DNA from: Patescibacteria group bacterium
Lineage (GTDB): Bacteria > Patescibacteriota > Patescibacteriia > JAHJFT01
Assembly: GCA_028710985.1 (NCBI GenBank)
Contig: JAQTTB010000001.1
Coordinates: 295,397-359,396, forward strand
DNA: 64,000 bases
Reading direction: 5' to 3'
Shown: in pieces, positions 15,705-57,790 of the stretch
Layout of the letters: every line of letters starts with the position of its first letter
How positions within the stretch are numbered: the stretch's first letter is position 1
Program-made: the position numbers and the translations under genes
The notes under the pieces: generated by a model
What the model saw: the letters and a program-made list of their open reading frames with translations, nothing else
The model's database searches: none
Told to the model about the DNA's origin: nothing

Positions 15705-16145
15705 CAATAGAACATCAGAGCAAAAGAACAATGGAACAAAAATATGGCGGATAAGAATGCCTACAGAGAAACTTTAAAGCAAAAGATGGACGAATATGTC
15801 CATCTTGTTTATAAAGTCACTAGAAATTTTCCGGCTGAAGAAAGATTCGGTTCAGCGTCGCAGTTGCGTCGGTCGGCTTTATCGGTAATTTTGAACTATA
15901 TTGAGGGATTCGCTCGCATAAGATTAAATGTAAAATTAAATTTTCTTGAAATCGCTTATGGCTCACTCAAAGAATCAAAATATTTGATATATTTCTCAAT
16001 GAAGGAAGGGTATATATTCAAAGAAGATTACCAGACCCTAATCGGACTTGCCGACAATATCGGGGCCATGCTCTGGTCTGAAATAGCGCAAGGCAGTAAA
16101 AAGCGAGACAAAAATTGACTTGTTCTTTGTTCTGTTGTTCTATTG
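15705..16145 (+). mobile_element. IVS-like cassette A: four-helix-bundle protein gene enclosed by imperfect low-complexity inverted repeats (left CAATAGAACATCAGAGCAAAAGAACAATGGAACAA, right CTTGTTCTTTGTTCTGTTGTTCTATTG)
   Basis: Arms at 15705-15739 and 16119-16145 are reverse-complementary (ttgttc/gaacaa motifs). They abut the start and stop codons of the enclosed ORF. Confidence 0.6.
15744..16118 (+). CDS. four-helix-bundle protein (23S rRNA intervening-sequence protein family, TIGR02436-like)
   Basis: 124 aa. Family hallmarks: ...LVYKVTRNFPAEERFGSASQLRRSALSVILNYIEGFAR...IAYGSLKESKYLIYFSMKEGYI. Three paralogs elsewhere in the window share the SQ(L/M)RR(A/S)AxSIxxNIAEG core. Confidence 0.85.
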   Translation: MADKNAYRETLKQKMDEYVHLVYKVTRNFPAEERFGSASQLRRSALSVILNYIEGFARIRLNVKLNFLEIAYGSLKESKYLIYFSMKEGYIFKEDYQTLIGLADNIGAMLWSEIAQGSKKRDKN

Positions 16146-16210
16146 TTGAAATACCGCAAGAAAACAAAAACCAGCCTAGATTATCTTGGGCCGGTTTTTT
16201 AAATATACTC

Positions 16211-16483
16211 TTACTTGGCTGCGAATTTCCGATTGTACGCCTTGGTGAGCCGCGAAACATTGCGCCGGCTAGTGTTAGCCGGAATGGCATGAGACTTGGC
16301 GGCCTTGGCAGACCTCGTCTGTAATTGTAAGAGAAGTTTTTTTGCATCATCCTTTTTGTCGGAGGCAATCGCCTTAAGGAGATGCTTTTTAATTGTATCC
16401 AATTCACCGGTCAAGGCGGCATTTTTCGCGGTTCGGACCTTGCTTTTCCGGAGCTCCTTGGCCGCGGATTTTTTGATTGGCAT
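16211..16483 (-). CDS. rpsT: 30S ribosomal protein S20
   Basis: 90 aa basic protein (MPIKKSAAKELRKSKVRTAKNAALTGELDTIKKHL...), the S20 signature. Confidence 0.9.
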   Translation of the reverse strand: MPIKKSAAKELRKSKVRTAKNAALTGELDTIKKHLLKAIASDKKDDAKKLLLQLQTRSAKAAKSHAIPANTSRRNVSRLTKAYNRKFAAK

Positions 16484-16521
16484 AAATAAAATTTGATAAA
16501 AATAAATTGATTAATCGTATC

Positions 16522-17562
16522 TTACGATAAATCCGCCGGCTTGTCAAGTTGCTTGGGTTCAACCAAGTCCTCGCTGCCGGTTAGTTTATTCATGTCCTTG
16601 TTAATTTTGGCAAATTCCTTGTAGGCAGAATTATAAGTATTCACCACAGTGCCAAATTGATCGCCAAGTTTAATTAAATAATTATCAAAATTTAGATAGT
16701 GCTTGTTAAGTTTTTGCAGACCGGCGATAACCTCTTTAATATTTTCTTCAACCTTCAAAGCCTTTAAAGCCTGCAAAATCGTCTGCAGATAAGCGATAAA
16801 CGTGGTCGGTGAAACAATGACAACCTTTTTGCTGTTGGCATATTCAATCAGGTTCTGGGAACTGACGTCAACCGCGCCGACGGTCGCAATGAGCAAACTG
16901 TAATATACGCCTTCGGCCGGAATAAACATGAGTGCGAAATCAGTGGTGTTTTCATTTGGCCGGATGTATTTGCTTGTTTCGTCAATGCGTAGTTTTAAGT
17001 CTTGTTTAAATTCGCGTTCAAGCAAATTTCGGCGCACTTTGTCATTTTCTTCCTGGATTAGATTATATTTTTCCAGAGAAAATTTTGCGTCAATGGGGAT
17101 GATTTTGTCGCGGACAAATATTGCGGCATCAACAATTTCGCCGTTTTTGAAAGCGTACTGCATGGTGAAGTGATTGGGGGGCAAAACGTTGGATAAAACC
17201 GATTCAAGAAAGTATTCCCCCAAAATACCACGATGTTTGGGGTTTTTTAGAATATTTTCCAGGCTCTGCAATTGTGATGCAAAATTAACCACCTGTTTGT
17301 TTGTGGCATCAAGTTGTTCAAGTCGGGCAGTAACAGACTGGATTAAGCGGCTGGAGTCGCCGGATTGCTTTTGCAAAAAATCCAGGTTCTTCTCAAGTGA
17401 AGATTTAAGTTCGCTTTGGATTTCCTTGACCTGGGTTTGCAGATCTTTAAGCCCACGGTCCTGATTCGTGTCAGTATTGCGTTTTGAAAAAACAAAATAA
17501 GCCAGCAAAATGATCAAGGCAATAAGCAGTAATAGTAAAAACATTGATAGATAGTTTTGCAT
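16522..17562 (-). CDS. rmuC: DNA recombination protein RmuC
   Basis: N-terminal TM helix, then a long coiled coil (LQTQVKEIQSELKSSLEKNLDFLQKQS...), then the conserved RmuC C-terminal domain (VDAAIFVRDKIIPIDAKFSLEKY...FALMFIPAEGVYY). The start is taken at MQNYLSMFLLLL (17562) rather than the longer ORF start at 17604. Confidence 0.7.
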   Translation of the reverse strand: MQNYLSMFLLLLLIALIILLAYFVFSKRNTDTNQDRGLKDLQTQVKEIQSELKSSLEKNLDFLQKQSGDSSRLIQSVTARLEQLDATNKQVVNFASQLQSLENILKNPKHRGILGEYFLESVLSNVLPPNHFTMQYAFKNGEIVDAAIFVRDKIIPIDAKFSLEKYNLIQEENDKVRRNLLEREFKQDLKLRIDETSKYIRPNENTTDFALMFIPAEGVYYSLLIATVGAVDVSSQNLIEYANSKKVVIVSPTTFIAYLQTILQALKALKVEENIKEVIAGLQKLNKHYLNFDNYLIKLGDQFGTVVNTYNSAYKEFAKINKDMNKLTGSEDLVEPKQLDKPADLS

Positions 17563-18114
17563 ATAACAGTATTTTAGCACGATAAAGCAAGGCAGGCAAG
17601 TCACAAATGACCATATTTTGCGAATCTTATTTTAAAGTAAAATTACACAATATATTAGTATTCATATCCTCGCTTGTCGTGAAACTAGTTGATTTATCGC
17701 AGATTATGCGCGTCAGAGCCGGTTTGACTAAATATGCTACGAAATTCCGTTAAACTGTATCACAATTTGATGCAGTTCGTTGTATTTATAGAGGAAATAT
17801 CGCTTATCTGCTCAGCCGATGAGTAAAAGGAGGTGAGAGTGGAGGCTATCGCAAGGAAGACGAAGTTGAGGAGCTGCGTGGAATTTAAAACAATTGATTG
17901 AAAAATCGCGAGTACATTGGCCGGTCGTGTCCGTCTCTTCAACTCGTGGAGTGGGTGCAAAGAGGAAAAAATAGTTCCTTGAAAATGGTCAAAAAACCGT
18001 CTATGGGATCGTTAACAGGGCTAACGAAGAAAAAGTTCCACATGAAACTATTTTAAAGATAAACATACTAGATGTCTAAGTAAGACTAGACAAAGACTTT
18101 TTAACCCATAAATC

Positions 18115-18194
18115 TGTGGATAAGTTGTCTGAAAAATCAAAAAATAGCTTAAAATCAGGTGATTTAAAAACAATGAACAATTTATTTATCCACA
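18115..18194. promoter_or_regulatory. two perfect consensus DnaA boxes in inverted orientation (TGTGGATAA 18115-18123; TTATCCACA 18186-18194) in a 670 bp AT-rich non-coding region
   Basis: Each is an exact 9-mer match to the canonical DnaA box. The surrounding sequence is strongly AT-rich with A/T tracts. They lie 70-150 bp upstream of the promoter at 18233-18261. Confidence 0.6.
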
Positions 18195-18232
18195 GATAGC
18201 TATTTTTTAGCTAATTTTAGCGAAATTTAGAA

Positions 18233-18261
18233 TTGAAAATAGCCCTAATTCATGCTATAAT
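18233..18261 (+). promoter_or_regulatory. sigma70-type promoter TTGAAA-17-TGcTATAAT driving the surface-protein gene cluster
   Basis: -35 TTGAAA at 18233-18238. 17 nt spacer. Extended -10 TGCTATAAT at 18253-18261. Start codon at 18284. Confidence 0.5.
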
Positions 18262-18283
18262 ATAGAGTGAAAATCTAACAAAC

Positions 18284-23940: not shown

Positions 23941-24368
23941 AAGAATCTAGTATCTAGTATCTAGAATCTAGAAGATCAAAAACGAAAATACTTATATATG
24001 CAGACGAAATCATTTAGAGATTTGATTGTTTGGCAGAAGTCGCGCGATTTGGGGGTTGAGATATACAAGTTGACAAAGAGTATGCCCAAAGAGGAACTCT
24101 ACGGCATGGTGAGTCAGATGAGAAGGGCGGCGATCTCCATATCGTCCAATATCGCCGAAGGATATAATCGCGCGCATCCGATAGAGAAGAGGCAGTTTAT
24201 GCGCATCGCCTATGGTTCAGGATCGGAATTAGAAAGCCAGATCGAAGTCGCAAAGATTATATATCCAAAGTTAAGTTATAAGTTATCAGAAAGTTTATTA
24301 CTCGAAGTACTAAAGATCCTAAATAAATTTATCAACCGATAAAAGACTAGATTCTAGATTCTAGATTC
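23941..24368 (+). mobile_element. IVS-like cassette B: four-helix-bundle gene enclosed by TCTAGA-type inverted repeats (left AAGAATCTAGTATCTAGTATCTAGAATCTAGAAG, right AAAAGACTAGATTCTAGATTCTAGATTC)
   Basis: Arms at 23941-23974 and 24341-24368 are reverse-complementary. The right arm starts at the stop codon. Same arm family as 14671-14760 and 27095-27290. Confidence 0.65.
23998..24342 (+). CDS. four-helix-bundle protein (23S rRNA intervening-sequence protein family)
   Basis: 114 aa. MQTKSFRDLIVWQKSRDLGVEIYKLTKSMPKEELYGMVSQMRRAAISISSNIAEGYNR...IAYGSGSELESQIEVAK: the canonical family sequence pattern. Confidence 0.85.
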   Translation: MQTKSFRDLIVWQKSRDLGVEIYKLTKSMPKEELYGMVSQMRRAAISISSNIAEGYNRAHPIEKRQFMRIAYGSGSELESQIEVAKIIYPKLSYKLSESLLLEVLKILNKFINR

Positions 24369-24373
24369 ACCGT

Positions 24374-27112
24374 ATGAAATACGCACGCACAACAATAATA
24401 CTGCTTGCCATAATGGCAGGGCTCGCAATTGCCACGGCCGTCCACGCCGCGCGATTTGAATTATCGCCTGCGAGTGCGGCCCTGAATCAGGGTTGCGACT
24501 CGGTGGTGAACATCGTGCTTAGTACCGAAGGAAGCGAATCCGATGCCGCTAATGTCATTATCCAATACAATCCGGCTGAAGTGGAAATTACGGACACAAA
24601 CCCGGCCATTCCGGGAATCCAGATTGGCCAGGGCAATGCCTATGATATATACGCCGATAATATTGTCGATCCGGCAATCGGCCAGATTCGGTTGACCGGA
24701 TTTTCCATCGGCCATGCCTACAACAGCGGCTTATTGTACGGAGTCTTTGGTTCGATTCCATTCAAGAGCCGGCCCGGGATTGCGGCAGCCACTTTCACAA
24801 TTTTTTATGAGGCTGGGAGCACGCTTGATTCAAATATTGCTGAATACATCACAAGCGACGATCTTCTCACCGGCGTGCGAAACGGATCTTATACATTCGC
24901 GGTTGGCGAGTGCGTGAGCGATGTAACACCGCCCTGGGTTACGAATCCTCAGCCCGCGCCTGGTTCAACCGGCGTGCCGCTTTCAAGCAACACTACTTTT
25001 CACATTCTGGATAACATGTCCGGAGTTGACCTCTCGTCGCTCCGCATCAATGTCCAGGGAATTGAATATAATTATGACGGCGTCAACCGTTTCAGCTATT
25101 CTGGCACGGCGCTCGATTACGCAATCACGATTGATCCGATTGCCGATTTTCCGGACGGCGTTATGGTGCGCGTCGAAGTAAACGGCCGCGATCTTGACGG
25201 CAACACCATGTCACCTTATCGCTGGTATTTTAACGAACCGCCGATTCCGCCGCCGGTCCCGCCAACCTGTACCGAGCTCGGTTGCCCGGAACCTGATGAA
25301 TGTGCTCCGCCGGAAGAACTTCCGGCGTGTGAAGAACCCGAGGTTTTGCCCATCCCCGAACCCACTGTGCCGCCCGGAGAGCAGATAAGTATTGATGCCA
25401 TTGAATTCTTGGCTGCGAACCGCACGGTTCGTTTGTATCCCGACGGAGTCAATGCCGTGCGCGTACTTGTGGGTACTTCGTACAGCGTGCAAATCAGCCA
25501 TGAAAATCTCGCCAAAGAAGTGGGCTCAATCTGGTGGTATTCGGGTGCGTCAACATATCAACTCGCGCAAAGTGCGGCGGGTGATTTCTGGACCGACATC
25601 GGCGCCTATGCTTCAATCACCGCGGTTCCTTCACACATCATTATAAATTACGCAGATGGCACCATTGATGTGCGCGACTTTACGGTGCGGACCGTGCCGC
25701 GAGGCAATGTGTACGAACAAATCGGCGAAAATGAATCCATGGTTTCCGGCGCCAGGGTGACGATTTATCAAGCCGGCACCACGCCTGGAATCTGGAATGC
25801 CGGAACCTACAATCAGATAAATCCGGTATGGACTTCAAATGACGGCCAGTTCGGCTTTTATGTGCCGCAGGGCTATTACTACATTGAGGTGCAAAAGCCG
25901 GGATATGATCTGGCGCGGTCGCTCTCGTTCTATGCGCGCAGTTCCATTGTTAATAATCCCATGCTTCTTACGAAAATTCCCGGACCGGTTACTCCGATTG
26001 ACGCGATTACACAGACCGCAGTACTGGTCGGCGAAACCGTGGCCGATATGGCCGCGCGGACACAGTCCGCGATTGTCGCCGCCATTCCGGCAACTCAGGA
26101 ACAGATTGATTCAGCCGTCGGTATTATCGCGCCCGCCGCCATCGGCCTCGCATTCCTGAATCTCGGTACCGCGATTTCATTCGCTAATCTGATTCCGTTC
26201 TTGTGGGGGCTCTTTACCCAACCGCTGCTCTTGCTCGGCCGGGGCAAAAGAAAAAGATGGGGAGTGGTTTACAATTCACTCACCAAGATACCGATTGATC
26301 TCGCTATCGTCCGCCTGATTGAAGCCCGGACCGGAAAAATAATTCGCACTCGCATCACCGACCGTGAGGGCCGATATTTCTTCATGGCCAAACTGGGAAT
26401 TTACCGCATTGAAGTAAAAAAGCCGGGTTTTCTGTTTCCCACGATAAATTTACGCGATGCCAAGGAGGATTTTCAGTATCTGGATGTTTATCACGGTGAG
26501 ATTATTCAGGTTCGCGAAGAAAGTCGCCAAATTACGGCTAATATTCCGCTTGATCCGATCGCCGGCGCCGAGAAATCAAAATGGCTTATTGTTCGTTCAT
26601 ACTTAAAGAAGGCGCAACAGTACGCGGCTTCACTTTCGGTTATGGTGGCCATCGGACTCTTGGTCGTCAACCCCTCATGGTTTATGCTCGGGTATCTTAT
26701 TCTGCAAATCGCTCTTCTTCTGCTTTTCCGTCGCCTGGCTCAGCCTGCCAAGCCAAAGGGCTGGGGCATAGTTTACGACAAAAAAACCCGCCGGCCGATT
26801 GCCAATGCCATTGTGCGTATCTTTGACCTTGAATTCAGCCGTCTTTTGGAAACCCAGGTCACGGACGGACAGGGCAAGTATTCATTCCTGGTCGGCAGTA
26901 ATCGGTATTTCACCACCTACGAAAAGCCCGGTTTCGTGGTAAAGAAATTAGCGCCAATTGATTATTCAAAAATGAAAGAAAGAACCATGGTGGCTTATGA
27001 TGTGGGGCTGGAGCGGGCCAAGGACATTGCGGCATCAGAGCAGAAAAATGCGGCCAGTGGGTCAGTGCAAGTCGGAGGCGGAGAAGAGTGGAAGAACGAG
27101 AATAGAATCTAG
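24374..27112 (+). CDS. membrane-anchored surface protein: N-terminal cohesin-like domain, Ig-like domain, Pro-rich linker, three CarbopepD_reg-like domains, internal TM helices
   Basis: 912 aa. Signal peptide. Residues about 26-160 (FELSPASAALNQGCDSVVNIVLSTEG...ANVIIQYNPAEVEITD...) resemble the cohesin beta-sandwich pattern. Linker reads EPPIPPPVPPTCTELGCPEPDECAPPEELPACEEPEVLPIPEP. Three G.Y...V.KPG(Y/F) modules (YYYIEVQKPGYDL; GIYRIEVKKPGFLF; YFTTYEKPGFVV) are preceded by TD.(D/E)G.(Y/F) motifs. Two or three hydrophobic helices lie around residues 560-600 and 740-790. Confidence 0.5.
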   Translation: MKYARTTIILLAIMAGLAIATAVHAARFELSPASAALNQGCDSVVNIVLSTEGSESDAANVIIQYNPAEVEITDTNPAIPGIQIGQGNAYDIYADNIVDPAIGQIRLTGFSIGHAYNSGLLYGVFGSIPFKSRPGIAAATFTIFYEAGSTLDSNIAEYITSDDLLTGVRNGSYTFAVGECVSDVTPPWVTNPQPAPGSTGVPLSSNTTFHILDNMSGVDLSSLRINVQGIEYNYDGVNRFSYSGTALDYAITIDPIADFPDGVMVRVEVNGRDLDGNTMSPYRWYFNEPPIPPPVPPTCTELGCPEPDECAPPEELPACEEPEVLPIPEPTVPPGEQISIDAIEFLAANRTVRLYPDGVNAVRVLVGTSYSVQISHENLAKEVGSIWWYSGASTYQLAQSAAGDFWTDIGAYASITAVPSHIIINYADGTIDVRDFTVRTVPRGNVYEQIGENESMVSGARVTIYQAGTTPGIWNAGTYNQINPVWTSNDGQFGFYVPQGYYYIEVQKPGYDLARSLSFYARSSIVNNPMLLTKIPGPVTPIDAITQTAVLVGETVADMAARTQSAIVAAIPATQEQIDSAVGIIAPAAIGLAFLNLGTAISFANLIPFLWGLFTQPLLLLGRGKRKRWGVVYNSLTKIPIDLAIVRLIEARTGKIIRTRITDREGRYFFMAKLGIYRIEVKKPGFLFPTINLRDAKEDFQYLDVYHGEIIQVREESRQITANIPLDPIAGAEKSKWLIVRSYLKKAQQYAASLSVMVAIGLLVVNPSWFMLGYLILQIALLLLFRRLAQPAKPKGWGIVYDKKTRRPIANAIVRIFDLEFSRLLETQVTDGQGKYSFLVGSNRYFTTYEKPGFVVKKLAPIDYSKMKERTMVAYDVGLERAKDIAASEQKNAASGSVQVGGGEEWKNENRI

Positions 27113-27290
27113 AATCTAGTATCTAGAATCTAGGCGTTAAAAGTTTATCAATCTATAAAAAGACTAGATTCTAGATTCTAGCTTCTAGATTCTCCGTAAA
27201 GACTAGATTCTAGATTCTAGCTCCTAGATTCTCCGAAAAGACTAGATTCTAGCTTCTAGATTCTAGATTCTATCTTTTCCGCTCTCGGAC
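27095..27290. repeat. TCTAGA-type inverted-repeat locus: one left arm (overlapping the last codons of the upstream gene) and three tandem right arms (AAAGACTAGATTCTAGATTCTAG(C/T)T(C/T)CTAGATTCTCC)
   Basis: The left arm AGAATCTAGAATCTAGTATCTAGAATCTAGG starts inside codons NENRI-stop. The spacer CGTTAAAAGTTTATCAATCTAT resembles the spacer at 14702-14728. Three near-identical right-arm copies lie at about 27158-27195, 27199-27236 and 27240-27285. Confidence 0.65.
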
Positions 27291-27339: not shown

Positions 27340-30300
27340 ATGAACTCAATCGGAGGAAGACAATTCAAGCGGACTTTAAAGAAAACCATTGTTTTGCAAA
27401 TGGCAGTTTTGATGTTGCTTGTCTGGTTCGGTGCGTTCGTGACTCCGGAAAAAGCCCATGCTGCGATTAATAAATACATCAACTATCAGGGAAAACTGCT
27501 TGATTCTTCCAAAATCCCGGTGGCGGACGGAACCTATGGCATTGAATTCAAGATTTACGATGCCGTCACTGCCGGCAGTGAACTCTGGTCAGATTCCTTT
27601 GATGTTGCTGTTGATGACGGTCTATTCAGCATTTTGCTGGGTTCAAGCGGCACGCTTGACTTGAATTTTGAAGATGAAGCCGGCTACTGGCTGGGTGTTA
27701 ATGTTGAGGCTGATGGCGAAATGACGCCGCGCAAAGAAATTGGCGCCGCGGCTTATGCATTCAACTCGGATTTATTGGACGGATTGCATGCCACGACTAC
27801 CGGCGCAATTTCTTCGGCCGTGGTCGCGCTGACTGCCAACGGCAATCTCACCATTACCGGCGATCCCCAAGGCGGCGCGGTTACACAGGGTTCCCTATAT
27901 ATTAATCCAGCCGCTCCGGCAGCCGATGAAACGCTTTTGGGTATCGCAAATAACGGCTCGCAGCGGCTGCTTTTGGATGCGGAAGGCGATCTGACGGTCG
28001 CCGGATATGTCTCAACCACACAATTATTTATTGATAGTATTGATGTTCAAACCAGCGCTTCCCGGACAACCTCAGGCGCGTATATCATTGGTGTTGCCGA
28101 CAACTTCTCGTGGTCGGCCTCAACCAATGTCCAGTTCGTGCTTGAGGATTTGGATCTCGCAATCACTAACGCCTCATCTTCAGCCAACCTTTGGACCGAT
28201 GCAGGTACATATATATATAACACCCCGGCCGGTGACATTAACCGATTCTATGACAACGGCGATATTAAGTTTGACCAAGTGAGTGATACATTATTTATTG
28301 ATCAAAGCGCGCACAGTATTGGTATCTTTACAACTTCTCCTACGGCCGCGGCACTTGAGGTTGATGCAAATTCACTTGGAACAACTACGGCAAACAAAAT
28401 AATTTTAGCAAACACAACCGCCGCCGGCGCTGGTGCACAACAGGTTTCGCCTGCATTAAATTTTAGAAGTCAAGGTTGGTCACTTGCAGAAAGTGCATCT
28501 CAAGAAGTGGATTGGCAAGTGTATGTCCTACCTCATCAATACGCTGGTCGACAGGCGACCTCAGATTTATATTTTCAGTATAAATTGGGCGGTGAATCAA
28601 GTTATAGAACTGGTATTATTTTTACCGCTCCTTTTGATAGCGGATATGCATCTTTAGCGGCATATAATGGCACTTTTTATAATAGCGTAAGTGTAAGCGC
28701 AGTTCTAAGTGTTAGCACCAATGCTTATCTGGCATATACATCTACTGCCTACAGGGTCGGCATCGGCACCAACAGCCCCGGCTACAAGCTGCATGTTGTT
28801 GGCACGAGCGGTTTTGATGGCAGCCTTGCTGTTTCATCAACCAATCTCATTTTTGACGCCGCCGGTACAGCCTTCGCAAGTTCAACCGACCGAACTCACT
28901 CCGGCGCTTACTACTTGGGTGTTGCCGACAATTTCTCCTGGTCGGCTTCAACCAATGTCCAGTTCGTGCTGGAAGATTTGGACCTTGCGATCACCAACGC
29001 CTCATCATCGGCCAATCTTTGGAAAGCAAACGCTTCATATATATATCCGGCCTCAACCACGGCCAATGTTTTCCCTTCATCAAACAATGCGCAAAGCCTA
29101 GGAGCGTTTGGTAGTGCCTGGAAAGATATTTATGCTTCGGGCACGTCATATTTAACCAACGTAACGGCGGCAAATTATGTTAATGTTTCCGACGCGACAG
29201 TCGGCTATAAAATCGGCGGGAACATAATTTTAAGAAATCCCTATACCCGCAATATACTTCTTGGTCAAAGCGCGGGAGCGGCTCTTAATTCAGATGGCAC
29301 GGACAATATGTTTCTCGGTTATTTGGCCGGAGCTGCAGCCACTTCTTCAGATTACAATACTTTCATCGGCTCTTACGCCGGCTATGCCAACACTGCCGGT
29401 ACTGCCAATGCCTTCATTGGCTATGTCGCCGGCTATGCCAACACCACCGGCGCTAATAATATTTTCATCGGCTCTTACGCCGGCTATACCAACACCATCG
29501 GCGCAAATAACTCCTTCATCGGTTATGCCGCTGGCCGCTACAGCACTACCGGCTCCTACAACTCCTTTATTGGTAATGCCGCCGGCTATTCAAACACCAC
29601 CGGTGCTGCCAATGCTTTCATCGGCTATGGTGCTGGCTACTATAACACCACCGGCGCGAATAACACCGCGATCGGTTCTTATGTTTTATACGCCAACACC
29701 ACAGGCGCGAATAATAGCGCGATCGGTTTTTACGCCTTAAGCGCCAACACCACTGGCGCGAATAACAGCGTGATTGGTTATTTTGCTTCATTTTACAACT
29801 CATCGGCCACGAGCACAGTGGCAATCGGTTATCAGGCGGCTCGAGGAACCGCGGCATACAGCAACCAAAACGGCGTGTACATTGGTTACAATGCCGGGTA
29901 TGCGGCTCAAACAGGGTCGGATAACAATATAATGATTGGTTATCAAGCCGGAGACAGTATAACAACGGGATCTGGCAATTTGCTTATTGGCTATGATGTT
30001 GATAATGCCACAAGCACGGCTTCAACCAATTACATAAATATCGGAAATACCATCCAGGGCTGGATCGGTGGAAAAATCTATCCATACAATCATGGAACAC
30101 AGGATTTGGGCGCATACGGTTATGCCTGGAAAGACATCTGGGCTTCAGGCACGGCCTTCCTCGCGAACGCGAATCTCTCCGGCAATGCTACTGTCCTGGG
30201 CTATGTCTCAACCACCCAAGTTTATATAGATAGTATAGATATAGAAGGCCAGGGTACGGGCAATACCACGGCCGGCGCCTACAAAATCGGCACTTATGAC

Positions 30301-33300
30301 GAATTTGACTGGTCCGCAAGCACCAATGTGCAGGATGTGCTTGATGACCTGGACGCCACTCTGACCACGGTTTCTACCTCGGCCATGCTTTGGACCGACG
30401 CGGGTACATATATATATAATACCCCGGCCGGAGACATTAACCGGTTTTATGATACCGGCAGTGTCAACTTTGATGCCACCAACACCACGCTTTATGTTGA
30501 CGCCATGAACAATCGCGTTGGTGTCGGCACGAATAACGCTTTAAGCGTTTTCCATATTCTTGGCAGCTACCCGCAGTTATTAATTAATGACAGTTCGGTT
30601 CCGAGCTTCCTGTCTTTGAGGGGTGATGCCAATATCTTCTTCAACAATGCCTCCAACTACAGGATCGCTAGCCAGGCTTATGCAAACCGCGGCACGGCCA
30701 CGGGCGATACAGTGAGATTTACCATTCAGGGCTCCAATGGATATGTGGGTATTGCCACTTCAACTCCGCAAGTGATGCTCCATGTGTACGACGGGAGTTT
30801 CCGTCAGCAAGATACAACCGGCGGCAAGACCGGGCAATTGACCATCTCCACCCTCTCTTCTGGTACGCTAATTCAGGAAACCAATAACGGTCGTATTACG
30901 TATAAGGCATATGCTCATACTTGGCAGACTCATGCGGGAACAGAAATTTTCCGAACCAGTGACGGGTTGACCGCAGTTATATTTAATGGAAATATTTTTT
31001 CTTACGGTAATCTTTACACCTCATCTTCAAAATTATTTGTTGGAAGTGACACAACTCTCGCCGAATCAACCGACCGCCTTGATTCCGGCGCCTACAATGT
31101 GGGCGTGGCCGACAACTTCTCGTGGTCGGCTTCAACCAATGTCCAGTTTGTGCTGGAAGATTTGGACCTCGCCATCACCAACGCCTCATCATCGGCCAAT
31201 ATCTGGAAAGCAAACGCTTCATATATATATCCGGCCTCAACCACGGCCAATGTTTTCCCCTCATCAAACAATGCGCAAAGCCTGGGTGCGTTTGGCAGCG
31301 CCTGGAAAGATATTTACGCTTCAGGCACAGCGTATTTAACCAACGTAACGGCGGCAAATTATGTTAATGTTTCCGACGCGACCGTCGGATATAAAATCGG
31401 CGGGAACATTATTTTAAGAAATCCCTATACTCACAATACACTTATCGGGCAAAACGCAGGGGCAAACATCAATTCAGATGGCACGGATAATACTTTTATT
31501 GGTTATTTCGCTGGGTACACAGCCACTTCAACAGATTATAACGTTTTTATCGGTCCTTACGCCGGCCAGAACAATGCTGCCGGCGCTAATAATTCCTTTA
31601 TCGGCTATGCCGCTGGCAAAGACAACACTACTGGCAGTGGCAACTCCTTCATCGGTTATGTCGCCGGCTATGCCAATACCATTGGCAATTATAACTCCTC
31701 CATCGGCTATGCCGCCGGCTATGCCAACACCACCGGCTCTTACAACTCCTTTATCGGCAATGCCGCCGGCCAAACCAACACCACCGGCGCGAATAACACC
31801 GGGGTTGGTTATTCCGCTTTATACTCCAACACCACCGGCGTGAATAACACCGCGGTTGGTTATTCCGCTCTATTCTATAACTCATCGGCCACAAGCACGG
31901 TGACAATTGGTTATCAGGCGGCGCGAGGAACCGCGGCATATAGCAACCAAAATGGCGTGTATATTGGTTACAGAGCGGGGTATGTTGTTCAAACAGGGTC
32001 GGATAACAATATAATGATCGGTTTTCAAGCCGGAAACAGTATCACAACCGGCGCTAATAATATATTGATTGGTTATGATGTTGATACACCGCTCGCAACC
32101 ACATCTAACTACTTAAACATTGGCAATCGGATTTATGGAAGTCTAACGGATGGAATTTTAAATATCCAGCCAAACGGTGATTCCAACAATTATTCCCGAT
32201 TTGCGACGGTTGATGCACAACCCATACTATATTTCGTTTCATCAACCATGACTAACTATTCCGGCTTCCGCTTGAATTCCTCTACCGGCGAAATGGAGTA
32301 TCGCGATGAGGATTCAGCGACGTATACACCATTTGACACAATCGCGGCCGGAGCGGGTATCTGGTCAACCGGCGCTTCATATATATATCCGGCCTCCACC
32401 ACGGCCAATGCTTTCCCCTCATCAAACAATGCGCAAAGCCTGGGTGCGTTTAGCAGCGCCTGGAAAGATTTTTATGCCTCCGGAACTTCATATCTCACCG
32501 GCGTATTGAATTCTGACGGAGCTCTTGGCGCGCCAAGCTACTCTTTCGCCGCAGATTCTGATACAGGTATGTTTTGGGCGGGTACGGGCAATGTTCGTTT
32601 CTCTTCAAACGGAGCGAGCATAGTGACCATGGGCAATTCTGAAGTGGATGTCGGCGGTTCAATTCTGCCAACCGCCAATAATACCCGAGATTTAGGCGCT
32701 TTCTCTTATGCCTGGCGCAATATCTATGCCTCCGGCACGGCATTCTTAACCGGTATTCAAAATTCAGTCGGAGCCGTCGGCACGCCAAGCTACAGTTTTG
32801 CCGGAGATACAAACACAGGAATCTACAGTCCATTATCCGATGCGGTTGCGATCGCTGTAAATGGTGCTCAACGATTCCAGGTAACCGCAACTGGCGCACA
32901 AGTAACCGGAACTGTCTATTCGGACGCAAATAATTCACGGGACATCGGCTACTTTGGAAATGCCTGGAATGATATCTTCGCGTCCGGTACAGCCTTCCTC
33001 GCGGATGCAAATCTCTCCGGCAATGCCACGGTCCTGGGTTATGTCTCTACCACGCAGTTATTTATTGATAGTATTGATGTTCAAACCAGCGCTTCCCGGA
33101 CAACCTCGGGCGCTTATGTCATTGGTGTGGCCGACAATTTCTCCTGGTCCGCCTCAACCAATGTCCAGTTCGTGCTGGAAGATTTGGACCTTGCGATCAC
33201 CAACGCCTCCTCATCCGCCAATATCTGGAAACTCGGGGCTTCATATATATATCCGGCATCCACCACGGCCGATATCCTGGCCGGCGCCGCAACTCCGGAC

Positions 33301-48257: not shown

Positions 48258-48340
48258 TTATAAACGCAATATTCCATGTCGTCAAATTATGTGTTATAAT
48301 TGCCTTATCAAGGGGAAAGGTTATCCCCAACGTCCGAGAA

Positions 48341-48796
48341 GCTCCAAATTCCAAACACCAAGCTCCAAATAAATTTCAATGGGCGAAATCCCAAAATCCA
48401 AACCCTATAATCTGGAAGAAAGAACCTTTGAATTTTCAAAGCAAGTAGCTGTTTTTTGCAAGAATTTACCCAAAACTCAAAGCAATTATGAGTATACCAG
48501 ACAGGTTATTCGATCTTCCGGATCGGTTGGTGCGAATTACATTGAAGCCAACGAAGCGTTAAGCAGCAAAGATTTCTTGATGAGAATTAAGATTTGCCGC
48601 AAGGAGGCAAAGGAAACCGCATATTGGATTGGCCTAATTATTGCGACAAACGACGCAGACCTCGAAAACGCCAAGCGACTATATGAAGAAGCCATTGAAT
48701 TAAAAAAGATATTTTCATCAATCGCAGAGAAAACAAAAAAAGTTTGAAATTTGGATTTTGGCATTTATTTGTAATTTGGTGCTTGTTATTTGGAGT
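48341..48796 (+). mobile_element. IVS-like cassette C: four-helix-bundle gene enclosed by CCAAA/TTTGG-type inverted repeats
   Basis: Left arm GCTCCAAATTCCAAACACCAAGCTCCAAATAAATTTCA (48341-48378) continues into the first codons (ATGGGCGAAATCCCAAAATCCAAA). Right arm AAATTTGGATTTTGGCATTTATTTGTAATTTGGTGCTTGTTATTTGGAG (48748-48796) is its imperfect reverse complement. Confidence 0.55.
48379..48747 (+). CDS. four-helix-bundle protein (23S rRNA intervening-sequence protein family)
   Basis: 122 aa. ...FEFSKQVAVFCKNLPKTQSNYEYTRQVIRSSGSVGANYIEANEALSSKDFLMRIKICRKEAKETAYWIGLI: the family pattern. Confidence 0.8.
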   Translation: MGEIPKSKPYNLEERTFEFSKQVAVFCKNLPKTQSNYEYTRQVIRSSGSVGANYIEANEALSSKDFLMRIKICRKEAKETAYWIGLIIATNDADLENAKRLYEEAIELKKIFSSIAEKTKKV

Positions 48797-48869
48797 TTAG
48801 AAAGTCAGTTCTTTAAAATAATAAAAAAAGCTCTATTAACAGAGCTTGCTAATTCATAAGAGAAATAAT

Positions 48870-51567: not shown

Positions 51568-51640
51568 GGGCTCGTAGCTCAGTTGGTAGAGCGCCTCCAT
51601 GGCATGGAGGAGGTCAGGAGTTCGAGACTCCTCGGGTCCA
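51568..51640 (+). tRNA. tRNA-Ala (anticodon GGC)
   Basis: Folded by hand: acceptor stem GGGCTCG/CGGGTCC with the G3:U70 alanine identity pair; D-arm GCTCAGTTGGTAGAGC; anticodon stem CCTCC/GGAGG with loop ATGGCAT (U33, GGC, A37); T-arm GGAGTTCGAGACTCC; discriminator A. The 3' CCA is not encoded. A flanking inverted repeat AATCAGTG/CACTGATT extends the acceptor stem. Confidence 0.85.
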
Positions 51641-54719: not shown

Positions 54720-55057
54720 ACTGTTATAAAAATTCTACATCAAATCCGAGTGTTTTGCGAGTTTTTTGCCAAAATGCGTCAAAAATCCGTGGGTCCGGGT
54801 GTCGGGAATAGTCTTCAACATTTGAAATTTGACGCTTATTTTAGCTAAATTTATAATATAATTAGGAATTGGCCAATTCCGAACAAGCGTTCTTTGACAA
54901 GAATTTCACGAGCTTTTGTCCGGCCGGCTCTTGACGGCCGGACATTTCCCCGCTAAAATAAGGTTACTTTATTAATTCTTAAGTCCATAGGGTCCAAAAG
55001 ACTCTTTTCGCGGTTCTCCCGATTGCGATCGGGATCGGGATACGCGGAACAAACACT

Positions 55058-55546
55058 ATGAACTACGAACTACTTTATATTATATCTGCGCAGTATACGG
55101 ACGACGAAGTGGCCGGTCTCAAAGACAAGGTCACCGCGGCGCTCCAGAAATCGCCGATTAATATATTAACCAACGAGAACCTGGGGAAGCTCAAGCTTGC
55201 ATATCCAATCAAGCACGCGCGCCACGGGTTTTATATTTTAGTTGAGTTTGAAACCGAACCCGCCGCGGTCCGCGGCCTTGAGCGCGAAATCCGCCTGATG
55301 CCCGAAGTGCTCCGCCATCAGCTTATTAGTCTCGGCGCAAAGCGTCCGAGCGATGAGGCGAGAAAGGCCATTAGAATGATTTCCTACGAAGAGCCGGAGC
55401 CGGATGCCGTGCGTGAGCCGGCGCCCCGATCCCGATCGCAATCGGGAGGGCCGAGAACCGCTCCGCGCCCCGCTCCGAAGAAAGTAAATCTCGAGGAGTT
55501 GGACAAAAAGCTTGATGAAATTCTTGAGAGCGACGTGAAAATCTAA
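55058..55546 (+). CDS. rpsF: 30S ribosomal protein S6 with C-terminal low-complexity extension
   Basis: [30 protein letters not shown]...[36 protein letters not shown] is the S6 fold pattern. It is first in an rpsF-ssb-rpsR operon. Confidence 0.85.
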
Positions 55547-55563
55547 GAAATCAACCCAAATAT

Positions 55564-55977
55564 ATGAATTTAAATAAAGCAATGATTATCGGGAATCTTA
55601 CCCGCGATCCCGAACTTCGCACCACTCCGAGCGGCGCTTCGGTCACTTCCTTCGGCGTCGCCACCAACCATACCTGGACTGACCAGCAGGGCAACCGCCA
55701 GGAAAAGGCTGAATACCACAACATTGTCGCCTGGGGCAAGCTCGCCGAAATCTGCTCGCAGTATCTTGCCAAGGGGCGCAAGGTTTATATCGAGGGGCGC
55801 CTGCAGACCCGCGACTGGGAAGGCCAGGACGGCGTCAAACGCTACCGCACCGAAATCGTGGCCGAGAACATGATTATGCTTGACCGCGGCCAGGGTCCGC
55901 GCGCGCCGGGCGAAGTTCAGAGTGAAGCGCCGGCCATGCCCGAAGAAGAGGTTAAAAAAGAAGACATTCCGTTTTAA
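55564..55977 (+). CDS. ssb: single-stranded DNA-binding protein
   Basis: 137 aa. OB-fold core [35 protein letters not shown]...[13 protein letters not shown]...[14 protein letters not shown]. Acidic C-terminal tail ending DIPF. Confidence 0.9.
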
Positions 55978-55983
55978 AACAAT

Positions 55984-56211
55984 ATGGCAATCTCACAAAA
56001 ACCAAAAGAAGACCGGCGCTGCTATTTCTGCGCCAACAATTTTCCGGAAATTGATTATAAGGATACGCAGCTCCTGCGCCGTTTTATTTCGTCATATGGC
56101 AAGATTGTGCCGCGCCGCAAGAGTGGAGCTTGCTCCAAGCACCAGCGCCAGCTGGCCACGGCGATTAAACGGGCGAGGATAATGGCGCTCTTGCCTTTTG
56201 TCCCTAAGTAA
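55984..56211 (+). CDS. rpsR: 30S ribosomal protein S18
   Basis: 75 aa. [54 protein letters not shown] is the S18 signature. Confidence 0.9.
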
Positions 56212-56220
56212 TTTTTTCCC

Positions 56221-56250
56221 AAAACCCCGCTTCTAACGAGGCGGGGTTTT
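56221..56250 (+). terminator. intrinsic terminator AAAACCCCGCTTCTAACGAGGCGGGGTTTT after rpsR
   Basis: 8 bp GC-rich stem with a T4 run, 10 nt after the rpsR stop. Confidence 0.6.
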
Positions 56251-56260
56251 GCTGTTATCT

Positions 56261-57337
56261 ATGGCAAACTCAAATTCCATGAAAAATGAATCAGTCCGCG
56301 CGAAATTCGAGTGCCGCGCCGAGATCATTGACGCAATCCGCGCCTTTTTTAAAGGTCGCGGCTATCTTGAGGTGGAAACACCCAAGGTCGTTGCGTTCCC
56401 CGGCCAGGAGCCAAATCTTGTTTCGTTTGAAACCGCGGTTCTGGACGAACGTGGAAAAAGTTTCTCTGGATATCTTATCACCTCACCCGAGTTTTCCATA
56501 AAGAAAATGCTTTCGGCAGGTTTTACCAAGGTTTTTGAAATGGGAAAATGCTTCCGCAACGGCGAGCCCTGGGGTGGTGATCACAATCCGGAATTTACCA
56601 TGCTCGAGTGGTACGCGTGCGGTATGGATTACCGGGGACTCATGGATGAAACCGAAGAGCTGGTTTGCGCCGTTAATCAGAAAATCAATAATTCCGAGAA
56701 AATTCAATATCAGGGACGGACCGTGAATCTCGCGCGGCCCTGGACCCGGATGAGCGTGGCCGAAGCGTTTAAGAAATGGACCAGTATTGATCTTGCGGCG
56801 AATCTTGAAGCCAATCGGCTCGCCGAGCGCGCCCGCGAAATCGGAATTGAGGTAACCGAGAGCGACAGCCTTAGTGACATTTTTTTCAAAATATTCTTAT
56901 CGCGCATTGAAACCGAGTTTCCCAAGGACGCGCCATTGATTCTGTATGATTATCCCACGGCCTTGGGTGCTCTGGCGCGTCGGCGCAGTGATGACCCGCG
57001 TTTTGCCGAGCGGTTTGAAGTGTACATCGCCGGCATGGAGCTTGCGAACGCCTTTTCCGAGCTCACCGATCCGGTTGAACAGAGGCAGAGATTCTTGGCG
57101 GAACAGGAAGAGCGTGGGCGCAACAATCTCCCGGTTTATCCGATTGACGAAGACTTCCTTTCCGCGCTTGCAACCCTTCCGCCGTCCGCCGGCATCGCTC
57201 TCGGCGTCGACCGGCTGGTTATGCTGCTTCTTGACGCCGCGGATATCAATGACGTGATCGCTTTCGGGGCCGGAGACATATTTAGTCAAAAGTCTAAAGT
57301 TAAAAGTCAAGTCCAAAGTCATCGAGTTCAATCTTAA
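56261..57337 (+). CDS. epmA: EF-P lysine beta-lysyltransferase EpmA (class II lysyl-tRNA-synthetase paralog lacking anticodon-binding domain)
   Basis: Class II aaRS motifs: motif 1 region AIRAFFKGRGYLEVETP; motif 2 FEMGKCFRNGE; motif 3 GIALGVDRLVMLL. No N-terminal OB anticodon domain. The start is moved to ATG 56261 because the track start (56249) is a TTG inside the terminator hairpin. The last about 19 codons (SQKSKVKSQVQSHRVQS) are encoded by the left inverted-repeat arm of cassette D. Confidence 0.65.
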   Translation: MANSNSMKNESVRAKFECRAEIIDAIRAFFKGRGYLEVETPKVVAFPGQEPNLVSFETAVLDERGKSFSGYLITSPEFSIKKMLSAGFTKVFEMGKCFRNGEPWGGDHNPEFTMLEWYACGMDYRGLMDETEELVCAVNQKINNSEKIQYQGRTVNLARPWTRMSVAEAFKKWTSIDLAANLEANRLAERAREIGIEVTESDSLSDIFFKIFLSRIETEFPKDAPLILYDYPTALGALARRRSDDPRFAERFEVYIAGMELANAFSELTDPVEQRQRFLAEQEERGRNNLPVYPIDEDFLSALATLPPSAGIALGVDRLVMLLLDAADINDVIAFGAGDIFSQKSKVKSQVQSHRVQS

Positions 57338-57790
57338 ATCCAATATGGCAAGCAATAAGGAATTTAGCGACCAGTTCAAAAGAAGAATATATAAGTTTAT
57401 TCTGGACTTAATAAAATATACCGATACCCTAGCGCAAGATAATTCACTCTGCCGCGTCGCGACCAACCAGCTACTGCGATGCGGAACAAGCGTCGGCGCT
57501 AACTATATAGAAGCCATCGCGAGCGCCTCAAGAAAAGAATTCACCAACTTTTTATCAATTTCGCTGAAATCAGCAAACGAAACAAAATTTTGGCTTGCTC
57601 TCTTACGGGATTCCAATCGGGGAAGCACCGATGAAATAAACAAGCTCTTAAAAGAAATCATGGAAATATCAAACATGCTCGGTTCCAGTATCCGGACATT
57701 GAGAGTAAAGTGATTGGACTAATAAACTTTAAACTTGACTTAAGATTTTTAACTTTTGACTTTAGACTAAACGGGTCGGCTTGACTTTGC
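57281..57790 (+). mobile_element. IVS-like cassette D: four-helix-bundle gene enclosed by AGTC/AAAG-type inverted repeats (left TTTAGTCAAAAGTCTAAAGTTAAAAGTCAAGTCCAAAGTC, right GACTAATAAACTTTAAACTTGACTTAAGATTTTTAACTTTTGACTTTAGACTA)
   Basis: Arms at 57281-57320 (overlapping the epmA 3' end) and 57716-57770 are reverse-complementary low-complexity sequence. The gene start and stop abut the arms. Confidence 0.6.
57345..57713 (+). CDS. four-helix-bundle protein (23S rRNA intervening-sequence protein family)
   Basis: 122 aa. ...YKFILDLIKYTDTLAQDNSLCRVATNQLLRCGTSVGANYIEAIASASRKEFTNFLSISLKSANETKFWLALL matches the 48379-48747 paralog (GSVGANYIEA core). Confidence 0.8.
   Translation: MASNKEFSDQFKRRIYKFILDLIKYTDTLAQDNSLCRVATNQLLRCGTSVGANYIEAIASASRKEFTNFLSISLKSANETKFWLALLRDSNRGSTDEINKLLKEIMEISNMLGSSIRTLRVK

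Follow-up and report, generated by a model that had tools for sequence, protein, structure and literature searches.

Four-helix-bundle genes between inverted heptamer arrays as probable insertion cassettes outside rRNA

Four small genes in the window (the whole 64,000-nt stretch of Patescibacteria DNA that was analysed) are cassettes of the 23S rRNA intervening sequence (IVS) type that lie outside rRNA. We think it probable that each locus is a copy of a widespread, self-contained insertion cassette, in which an Avd-like gene sits between inverted arrays of a 7-nt unit that likely form an RNase III site in the RNA. The cassettes connect the rRNA intervening sequences with the long-unexplained heptamer repeats of bacteria. 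The initial annotation had taken the arrangement outside rRNA to be new; in agreement with this, no earlier description of a four-helix-bundle gene with heptamer arms was found in the open-access literature.

Genes, arms and empty hairpins in the window

The four ORFs named by the initial annotation, all on the plus strand, were recovered at these coordinates:

15744..16118, + strand: c1 four-helix-bundle ORF, 124 aa; TIGR02436 86 bits, PF05635 89.9 bits
23998..24342, + strand: c2 four-helix-bundle ORF, 114 aa; matches TIGR02436 and PF05635
48379..48747, + strand: c3 four-helix-bundle ORF, 122 aa; matches TIGR02436 and PF05635
57345..57713, + strand: c4 four-helix-bundle ORF, 122 aa; matches TIGR02436 and PF05635

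The HMM check supported the assignment to the IVS-protein family. All four proteins scored above the curated cut-offs of TIGR02436 (79–106 bits; cut-off 24) and PF05635 (65–110 bits; cut-off 33.8), and a search for a fifth gene of this family in the window found none. The AlphaFold2 model of the c2 protein (pLDDT 90.3) has four helices and resembles 2GSC and 2RLD (TM 0.81–0.82). The GC content of the cassettes is 37–38.5%, against 49.8% for the window. An Rfam scan of the window found no rRNA.

The fold is also like that of the Avd proteins of diversity-generating retroelements (DGRs; 8UB7 and 4DWL, TM 0.74–0.77), and c1 weakly matches the bAvd (37 bits; cut-off 40) and DivGenRetAVD profiles. 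The genes might accordingly be read as orphan Avd proteins, with the repeats unrelated to them. This is very improbable, as DivGenRetAVD gives 31 bits where its cut-off is 80, a reverse transcriptase domain occurs in no scanned window ORF, and gene and repeats go together at 81% of the family loci described below.

Each ORF was said to be bracketed, codon to codon, by reverse-complementary arms. Complementary arm pairs that enclose the ORF almost to the codon were located at c1–c4; they consist of a 7-nt unit (7–8 nt in c1) repeated in tandem:

15705..15740, + strand: c1 left arm, (A)GAACAA-type units of 7–8 nt; begins right after the holA stop codon (15702–15704)
16119..16150, + strand: c1 right arm, (TTGTTCT)n; from the first base past the stop codon
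16174..16191, + strand: terminator-like stem and T-run past the c1 right arm; c1 and rpsT, which converge, lie on either side
23942..23973, + strand: c2 left arm, (AGAATCT)4.6
24343..24368, + strand: c2 right arm, AAAGA(CTAGATT)3; ends 5 nt before the next gene start (24374)
48339..48402, + strand: c3 left arm, (CTCCAAA)-type units; overlaps the ORF from its start codon through the first 8 codons
48742..48798, + strand: c3 right arm, (TTTGGAN)-type units; overlaps the stop codon
57281..57333, + strand: c4 left arm, (AGTCAAA)-type units; within the epmA 3′ end
57712..57771, + strand: c4 right arm, (TTGACTT)-type units

The search for complementary arms itself delimited the right arms of c1, c2 and c3 somewhat more narrowly, at 16126–16147, 24346–24368 and 48749–48798. 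The c4 left arm supplies the end of epmA, as had been noticed; it encodes the last 17 codons, which have no counterpart in any relative.

The predicted folding agreed with the suggested hairpins. In all four cassettes the arms were paired, both in the minimum-energy structure and in the centroid. The arm-only duplexes of c1, c2, c3 and c4 had energies of −31.5, −27.0, −42.5 and −45.4 kcal/mol (z −5.8, −7.3, −6.9 and −10.7 against shuffles). The whole-cassette folds gave z-scores of −5.1 (c1), −0.4 (c2), −2.4 (c3) and −4.3 (c4); the whole-cassette fold of c2 is thus not separable from shuffles (z −0.43). When the 39 called window ORFs were ranked by flank complementarity, c3, c4 and c2 took ranks 1, 2 and 4, and rank 3 was the gene between the c2 right arm and the neighbouring empty hairpin. 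c1 is missing from this ranking, displaced by an overlapping antisense ORF; its score of 43 would give third place.

Three hairpins of the same build carry no ORF:

14672..14758, + strand: empty hairpin, c2-type arms (AGAATCT)n / TAAAAGA(CTAGATT)n, loop of about 20–30 nt; just upstream of holA
27102..27273, + strand: empty c2-type hairpin; a single left arm is followed by three tandem right-arm copies of 39 nt
63581..63677, + strand: empty hairpin of a fifth heptamer type, (AAATGTC/T)n / (TTTGACA)n

When the loop of the hairpin at 27102..27273 is aligned with the 3′ end of the c2 ORF (last ~20 nt), 17 of 21 positions agree. The ORF-less hairpins are decay products of ORF-bearing cassettes. Arms of the c2 type occupy three sites inside a 13-kb part of the window.

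Heptamer arms across the protein family

We compared 74 family loci from Patescibacteria, Bacteroidota, Planctomycetota, Acidobacteriota, Omnitrophota, Nitrospirota, Chloroflexota and others with 222 position controls. The set of 80 comparison loci is skewed towards c2 relatives. The median flank-complementarity score was 34.5 for the family loci and 17 for the controls; 81% of the 74 loci lay above the control 95th percentile and 39% above the control maximum. The best period was 7 in 54/74 left and 53/74 right flanks, compared with 21/222 controls. All eight isolate plasmid loci had the heptamer-arm build, several as perfect arrays, and Nostoc punctiforme carries the perfect arrays (AATTCGC)4/(TTGCGAA)4. 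The layout as a peculiarity of this window was therefore too narrow a view: it is found in the whole TIGR02436 family across phyla, cultured organisms included.

The arms lie close to the ORF. The median distance is 11 nt from the end of the left arm to the start codon, and 0.5 nt from the stop codon to the right arm. The left arm is the purine-rich one at 46 of the 57 loci.

In short-read assemblies of the same population, contigs end precisely at one window hairpin (14673), which shows that heptamer repeats trouble assemblers. Chance low-complexity sequence or a metagenome assembly artefact is nevertheless refuted: three independent assemblies gave the identical sequence, control positions score far lower, and perfect heptamer arms occur in finished genomes of cultured Nostoc, Planktothrix, Gloeocapsa, Treponema and Bernardetia.

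The arm motifs track the protein subfamilies. Pairs with at least 65% protein identity have 40% of arm 6-mers in common, against 2–6% for other pairs. The protein is under purifying selection (pN 0.15–0.28, with pS saturated at 0.7–1.0), and arms retain TAGAA(A/T)N despite the saturated pS of the ORFs.

Insertion of the cassette and possible role of the arms

Insertion, inheritance and exchange between genomes act on arms plus ORF as one unit. At the epmA–efp junction, where a presence/absence comparison had been suggested, the cassette is absent from 9 relatives, in which efp directly follows epmA (gaps 12–128 nt). One site in a repeated Nostoc plasmid module is polymorphic: N. flagelliforme has two copies of the module with the cassette and Nostoc sp. 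C052 has one, whereas three copies from other strains lack it. The three empty copies were inspected for arms and have none. The Nostoc insertion replaced about 190–210 nt of resident DNA and destroyed a small resident ORF; a target duplication was looked for there and not seen, and the left junction differs between carriers. Dolichospermum has a homologous cassette in an unrelated context, with 78% nucleotide identity in the ORF and 100% in the arms over 33–34 nt. One arm family recurs at many sites of Nostocales plasmids. An arm motif can accompany a single protein subfamily across phyla, as the TAGCGNA type does in loci labelled Pirellulales, Omnitrophota and Atribacterota, and host loci of cassettes include DISARM/BREX, cas2-cas1 and methylase operons. 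The idea of a mobile IVS-like element thus gained direct genomic support: orthologous sites differ in whether they carry the cassette, one cassette recurs in unrelated contexts, and there are AT-richness and ORF-less derivatives. The cassette encodes no recombinase, and the window ORFs that were scanned include neither a reverse transcriptase nor a transposase or integrase.

The cassettes are co-oriented with the upstream gene in 64/70 loci (p 8e-4) and with the downstream gene in 64/74 (p 0.019), the baseline being 76%. Promoter-like sites between arm and ATG did not exceed chance. No promoter belonging to the cassette itself can be recognised; as it is co-oriented inside host transcription units, it is probably transcribed by read-through.

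The start and stop codons of the TIGR02436/PF05635 gene abut two inverted arrays of a 7-nt unit. We propose that these would zip into a 20–50-bp helix in the transcript, looping out the ORF and rejoining the host flanks. This arm helix is most likely an RNase III site in mRNA, by analogy with the 23S IVS of Coxiella, which encodes a protein of this family, has a 28-bp terminal stem and tandem heptamers, and is cut mid-stem by RNase III in vitro. An RNase III cut would free the passenger mRNA from the host RNA, and this would account for the insert being tolerated in rRNA helices and between operon genes. The four-helix-bundle protein, maintained by selection, plausibly binds its own heptamer arms; we infer this ligand because arm motifs track protein subfamilies.

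The arms may instead act in DNA, a possible but clearly less probable reading. The heptamer arrays would then be terminal inverted repeats or hairpin/cruciform recombination substrates, moved by a trans-acting host recombinase, by RecA-dependent exchange with arrays of the same heptamer or by replication template switching, and the RNA hairpin would be incidental. Arm mismatches have no wobble signature: G:U (65) is not in excess over A:C (78), so no signature of selection on a sense RNA helix is seen. Lasting selection on a sense-strand helix would predict a G:U excess, and DNA-level homogenisation fits the two counts equally well. Such homogenisation also predicts arms that are identical between Nostoc and Dolichospermum around a diverged ORF. 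The recurrence of one arm family in the window and in Nostocales plasmids, the MITE-like ORF-less copies and the presence or absence of the whole unit in Nostoc point the same way. However, neither a transposase or recombinase in the cassette nor a reverse transcriptase, transposase or integrase among the scanned window ORFs is there to move it, target-site duplication is absent, and the left Nostoc junction varies. Co-orientation and the purine-rich upstream arm (46 vs 11) are unexpected for a symmetric DNA repeat, and the arms are tight against the start and stop codons.

A domesticated regulatory module, that is, a hairpin and small protein kept by the host as an intercistronic device, is unlikely. 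Such a device could be a site of mRNA processing or stability, could insulate translation (TAG heptamers, three-frame stops), or could be an autoregulated operator bound by the protein. The strong purifying selection on the protein is consistent with it, and some cassettes keep the same neighbours over deep divergence (L008/L009/L024/L075 and L053/L061/L067/L070/L082). TAG is the most enriched trinucleotide of left arms (3.6-fold), 45% of left arms have stops in all three frames, and arms overlap the ribosome-binding regions of both the cassette ORF and the gene downstream. However, TAG-bearing units are missing in 3/4 window cassettes, orthologous sites of most relatives have no cassette, and insertions lie in unrelated operons (DISARM/BREX, cas2-cas1, methylase loci). 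One insertion wrecked a resident small ORF, and the cassette composition is foreign to the host. The self-contained insertion cassette with a likely RNase III site is the reading we prefer.

Comparison with known systems

The closest relatives are the 23S IVSs with an S23p ORF in Coxiella burnetii, Leptospira, Brucella and Xanthomonas (PMC4990558). They carry the same protein family, their complementary termini pair into a long stem that leaves the ORF in the loop, and they share ORF-less versions, sporadic distribution and suspected horizontal transfer with the cassettes (PMC4990558). The likeness of hairpin geometry to rRNA IVSs noted initially extends to the tandem heptamers in the stem of the Coxiella 23S IVS (PMC4990558). 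That IVS has a 28-bp terminal stem, which RNase III cuts mid-stem in vitro, and, in the 5′ stem region ahead of the S23p ATG, (GACAGAT)2-3 tandem heptamers, whose copy number varies between strains (PMC4990558). 23S_rRNA_IVP ORFs are also borne by rRNA insertions of CPR bacteria (bioRxiv 10.1101/2024.02.27.582315). The 23S IVSs are located in helix 25 or 45 of 23S rRNA, whereas the cassettes are between or at the ends of protein-coding genes. RNase III excision was demonstrated for the IVSs; for the cassettes it is suggested by analogy. The Coxiella ORF is reported as decaying, and the authors doubt that the S23p protein is made at all (PMC4990558), whereas the cassette ORFs are under purifying selection.

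The DGR Avd protein shares the four-helix-bundle fold (TM 0.74–0.77), and the homology of PF05635 and Avd is recognised (PMC10053308). Avd binds structured RNA in the DGR ribonucleoprotein (entry 8UB7). Unlike DGRs, the cassettes have no adjacent reverse transcriptase or template repeat, and they score under the Avd equivalog cut-off.

MITEs, REP/BIME and small palindromic elements likewise have inverted termini, are intergenic and multicopy, and include ORF-less derivatives of a longer "loaded" form. In contrast, the loaded cassette has no transposase-like protein, target-site duplication is not seen, its termini are heptamer arrays that vary by subfamily, and its orientation is strongly biased relative to host transcription. 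The intercistronic RNase III stems of the phage T7 early region and rRNA operon spacers also form a long near-perfect helix around a cistron that would release RNA, but they are fixed operon parts, whereas the cassettes are portable units with their own gene.

Short heptanucleotide repeats are known as cyanobacterial STRR, as GGGAATC pairs in Xanthomonas and as TAACTGA in Beggiatoaceae, cyanobacteria and Bacteroidetes (PMC4692102, PMC4679880). They too are intergenic tandem 7-nt units, often in convergent (inverted) pairs with varying copy number, with unexplained function, and they occur in the same phyla as those rich in four-helix-bundle genes (PMC4692102, PMC4679880). The two papers draw no connection to these genes. 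Many of the known repeats are single unpaired arrays, whereas the cassette arrays bracket a gene or its remnant.

Four-helix-bundle genes and their arms in the window

The window comes from a Patescibacteria MAG, spans its dnaA-dnaN origin region and contains exactly four ORFs of the four-helix-bundle (4HB) family. They lie where the initial annotation had placed them, and all exceed the curated cut-offs of TIGR02436 (79–106 bits, cut-off 24) and PF05635 (65–110 bits, cut-off 33.8). Each ORF forms a cassette with a left and a right arm, and there are three heptamer-array hairpins without an ORF.

15744-16118 (+), 4HB ORF of cassette c1
23998-24342 (+), 4HB ORF of cassette c2
48379-48747 (+), 4HB ORF of cassette c3
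57345-57713 (+), 4HB ORF of cassette c4, between epmA and efp
14672-14758, empty hairpin
27102-27273, empty hairpin
63581-63677, empty hairpin

The alignment of the four window ORFs showed an invariant RxxxSxxxNxxE core (R43, S47, N51 and E54); the published family motif is GxxRxxxSxxxNxxE (PMC3936711). The AlphaFold2 model, made for c2 only, had four helices and a pLDDT of 90.3. Its TM score was 0.81 with Xcc0516 (2GSC), 0.82 with BT_0352 (2RLD) and 0.74–0.77 with DGR Avd, and 2GSC was matched by sequence profile (E = 4e-22). A homopentameric ring was seen in the crystal structures 2GSC and 2RLD only, with five chains each.

All four ORFs are flanked by inverted repeats of tandem 7-nt units (7–8 nt in c1), which matched nothing in Rfam. 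The pairing of the arms proposed in the initial annotation was recovered in full-length RNA folds of c1–c4, in both minimum-energy and centroid structures. The predicted arm-only duplexes reached −27 to −45 kcal/mol (z −5.8 to −10.7). The c4 left arm is located within epmA and, as had been claimed, supplies its last codons, encoding the last 17 residues of EpmA; cassettes can extend or fuse host ORFs, and the epmA tail is an example. A role of the arms as intrinsic terminators was rejected, since the arms are A+T-rich, with loops of ~380 nt and no T-run. The sole terminator-like site at the window cassettes is downstream of c1.

Arm-like arrays were also found within host genes. The 3′ end of ftsK (60261-62747, −) carries CTT-rich and (TTGTTCTG)7 arrays at 60383-60510, like the c1 right arm; the FtsK tail past the gamma domain is array-encoded and is the second arm-like extension of a host ORF after epmA. 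The polA gene (9899-12565) contains two tandem copies of AAGGGAACAATAGAAC at 10799-10833, in frame and like the c1 left-arm motif. This array lies in the linker between the 5′-3′ exonuclease and the exonuclease-like domain of DNA polymerase I, and could be the relic of an arm that has become part of the coding sequence.

Most of rpsF (S6) is enclosed by a G+C-rich inverted repeat (55007-55039 / 55425-55457), whose 33-nt arms are 91% complementary and separated by 385 nt. It is not heptameric. Its leader pairs with the 3′ coding segment of the extended S6 C-terminus, and a role in autoregulation or processing is possible. The tRNA genes at 9529-9600 (−) and 51568-51640 (+) have flank repeats (9515-9536/9594-9615 and 51540-51574/51633-51667), and in both the leader-trailer complementarity runs 14–28 nt past the acceptor stem, which points to long processing stems at the tRNAs of this organism. 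The 5476-aa ORF at 27340-43770 contains 51/102-nt coding-repeat blocks at 29356-29781, 31580-31873 and 37235-37524.

Spread of the layout and its relation to host transcription

Of 8,000 candidates scored with one query of the 4HB family, more than 7,900 were relatives, and a genome-collection scan gave at least 600 matches. The alignment of the four window proteins, which are 24–28% identical among themselves, was too divergent as a seed for the locus search and was dropped. One genome per species was scanned with a c2-centred profile, which gave 80 loci from many phyla; as the seed alignment was c2-centred, this set is skewed to c2-like proteins. For 74 genes, c1–c4 included, the upstream flank was compared with the reverse complement of the downstream flank, with 222 positions of the same spacing as controls. 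Local alignment with position controls was used, because duplex energies of 140-nt flanks were not selective enough. The median alignment score was 34.5 for the 74 genes and 17 for the controls; 81% of the loci exceeded the control 95th percentile and 39% exceeded the control maximum. The best period was 7 in 54/74 left and 53/74 right flanks, compared with 21/222 controls (Fisher p ~1e-24). The arms lie close to the ORF, with a median distance of 11 nt from the end of the left arm to the start codon and of 0.5 nt from the stop codon to the right arm.

A tblastn search of c4 against finished plasmids gave an independent subfamily from cultured hosts. The same build was present in all eight isolate plasmid loci inspected, several of them with perfect arrays. 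The arrangement had been taken as local to the window; the flank test on 74 genes and the cultured plasmids showed that it is family-wide.

Table. Heptamer arms of cassettes by host
Nostoc punctiforme plasmid: (AATTCGC)4 ... (TTGCGAA)4
N. flagelliforme: (TAATTCG)4 ... (TTACGAA)4
Gloeocapsa: (TTTTAGA) / (TCTAAAA)
Bernardetia: (TGATTAG)14
Planktothrix, Chlorohelix, Treponema, Anabaena: heptamer arms present

Pairs of proteins at least 65% identical share 40% of arm 6-mers, whereas other pairs share 2–6%. Six arm-motif groups had two or more members; in four of these, protein identity within the group was 69–79%, compared with ~50% to other loci; some groups cross phyla. Ten c2-like cassettes had a pN of 0.15–0.28 at saturated synonymous sites (pS 0.7–1.0), and despite this saturation all ten kept the arm unit TAGAA(A/T)N. 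Judged from these substitution patterns, the 4HB protein and the arms are both under constraint. Although enriched in the arms, stop codons in every reading frame are not universal, and were therefore not adopted as the explanation of period 7.

The cassette was co-oriented with its upstream neighbour at 64/70 loci (p = 8e-4) and with its downstream neighbour at 64/74 (p = 0.019), against a baseline of 76% at the same loci; for co-orientation with both neighbours p was 2e-5. The median gaps from the cassette gene to its neighbours were 53 and 39 nt, so that the arms essentially fill the spacers. Between arm and ATG, a promoter scan gave no more promoter-like sites than expected by chance, and the cassette is probably carried on read-through transcripts. 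The upstream arm was purine-rich in 46/57 loci, which excludes inversion as a frequent event and links the asymmetry to the direction of coding.

By sequence similarity, cassettes recurrently adjoin genes of the class II aminoacyl-tRNA-synthetase type, namely LysS-like, AspS-like (two) and EpmA (two). These come from the comparison loci L046, L056, L038 and L127 and from window 56249-57337, a small sample in which two were ascertained via EpmA. At L038, from an Atribacterota MAG, a 6S RNA gene (2898-3133, 81 bits) lies ~2 kb downstream of the cassette.

Insertion, loss and ORF-less derivatives

The GC content of c1–c4 is 37–38.5%, compared with 49.8% for the window (1st to 3rd percentile). Nine relatives lack the cassette between epmA and efp, which are direct neighbours there, 12–128 nt apart, and the arm-encoded EpmA tail occurs in the window only. 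These relatives were found by an EpmA metagenome scan and are at most ~49% identical over the full-length protein, so the empty-site evidence for c4 comes from distant relatives only. In the distant relative L090, the epmA-efp spacer carries an unrelated ORF-less heptamer hairpin, (ATTATAA)n / (TTTATAA)n, at 3984-4081; another relative, L127, has a cassette on the opposite strand. Exact-protein look-ups with c4, RpsT and EF-P led back to the same population alone, its DNA being identical, and hence gave no strain-level polymorphism of the window. The independent short-read assemblies L129 and L130, which represent the same population, both end at window position 14673, the start of an empty c2-type hairpin, indicating that these repeats break short-read assemblies.

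One site in a repeated Nostoc plasmid module was loaded in three copies (two of N. flagelliforme and one of Nostoc sp. C052) and empty in three others (Nostoc sp. C057, cyanobiont N6 and N. punctiforme). The empty sites have no heptamer arms and carry an intact small ORF instead; in this single case the insertion replaced ~190–210 nt of the resident ORF. No target-site duplication was found when loaded and empty junctions of this case were compared, and two of the carriers differ in their left junction. A homologous cassette lies on a Dolichospermum plasmid in unrelated surroundings. Its ORF has 78% nucleotide identity with that of Nostoc, whereas the arms are 100% identical over 33–34 nt. Shared synteny of c2 with other c2-like cassettes was not supported. 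As read from these alignments, the unit that comes and goes is the arms together with the ORF.

Two of the three empty hairpins in the window carry the c2 right arm together with its stop codon context TAAAAGACTAGATTC, and in one c2-type hairpin 17 of 21 loop positions agree with the last codons of c2. From this resemblance the empty hairpins are best read as internal-deletion remnants of cassettes. The c2 right arm (24342-24368) and the next c2-type left arm (27112-27138) bracket the gene of a 912-aa surface protein. They are 89% complementary over 27 nt, so alternative long-range pairings are possible in a polycistronic RNA.

Proposed mechanism and comparison with known systems

The portable unit would consist of a heptamer arm, an Avd-like 4HB gene and an inverted heptamer arm. 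In the transcript, the arms would loop the insert out, and the paired arms would most likely create an RNase III site. In the Coxiella 23S IVS, for which RNase III excision without religation has been shown, the terminal stem is 28 bp long and is cleaved by the enzyme near its middle in vitro. This IVS encodes an S23p ORF and carries 2–3 tandem GACAGAT repeats, strain-variable in number, just before the start codon, with the 5′ cut at the first repeat (PMC4990558). Stem, S23p ORF and tandem heptamers are also the architecture of the window cassettes. The excision geometry put forward in the initial annotation is supported by the pairing of the arms and by this shared build, but not by the arm mismatches. 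The comparison of G:U with A:C mismatches was meant to show RNA-level selection, and it gave no wobble excess (65 G:U versus 78 A:C, symmetric scoring). These counts, and the finding that arms are more conserved than the ORF between the genera Nostoc and Dolichospermum, are explained at least as well by DNA-level homogenisation, e.g., slippage or template switching in quasi-palindromes. The 4HB protein plausibly recognises its own arms.

We speculate, as an idea that may well prove wrong, that the cassettes are an unrecognised and ubiquitous class of bacterial mobile elements. A pentameric Avd-like protein would recognise its own 7-nt arrays, as RNA or DNA, and insertion would be self-neutralised at the RNA level. 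The rRNA IVSs, many "empty" intergenic heptamer hairpins and a large share of STRR-type repeats (known since 1990) would then be one system. Three long-standing loose ends may be one phenomenon: the nature and origin of rRNA IVSs, heptanucleotide over-representation (cyanobacterial STRR, Xanthomonas, Beggiatoa and Bacteroidetes) and the role of the 4HB family. The 4HB family, rRNA IVSs and heptamer repeats are known separately, and what is apparently new is their association outside rRNA. In the open-access literature we found no paper tying 4HB genes to flanking heptamer inverted repeats outside rRNA, which agrees with the novelty first claimed for the arrangement. The carriers include cultured, genetically tractable hosts, such as Nostoc punctiforme, in which RNase III dependence, protein-repeat binding and mobility are testable.

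The cassettes differ from Avd systems. The best DivGenRetAVD score was 31 bits (c1) against a cut-off of 80, with no match for c2–c4, and no adjacent reverse transcriptase was found, as Pfam gave no RT domain in 29 other window ORFs (the 5476-aa ORF and several short ORFs left out). The cassettes resemble MITE/TIR transposons in their terminal inverted repeats, but differ in having no target-site duplication (single Nostoc case) and in having the 4HB gene as sole ORF, without a transposase. No recombinase is encoded in the cassette, and no transposase or integrase had a Pfam match among the window ORFs scanned.

Cassettes interrupt operons, defence and cas loci among them. On plasmids of cultured cyanobacteria and Chloroflexota, they lie inside defence operons (loci L133, L134, L137 and L138) in the orders drmD-4HB-pglX, DUF1156-4HB-Swt1 HEPN, helicase-4HB-N6 methylase and cas2-4HB-cas1, the last with its 4HB gene on the opposite strand. 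The 4HB family has been reported inside cas loci (PMC3936711, PMC10910872), and the published 23S_rRNA_IVP / CRISPR-Cas "associations" may simply reflect cassette insertions or repeat arrays.

The window arms resemble STRR-like heptanucleotide repeats in being intergenic tandem arrays with a 7-nt period, and the cassette arrays are of the same kind as cyanobacterial STRR heptamers. In CPR, ORFs of the 4HB family lie inside insertions of both 16S and 23S rRNA (bioRxiv 10.1101/2024.02.27.582315). The window cassettes differ in that they are not in an rRNA gene and all their flanks are protein-coding genes; Rfam showed no rRNA in the window, where there are two tRNAs only, and none beside eight comparison loci with long non-coding flanks. 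They are like rRNA IVSs in their complementary termini, which give a long predicted stem enclosing the insert, and in their sporadic, insertion-like distribution (nine epmA-efp relatives, one Nostoc plasmid site). The ORF-less hairpins are the counterpart of ORF-less rRNA IVSs. The best-supported reading is an IVS-type cassette that lives also outside rRNA.
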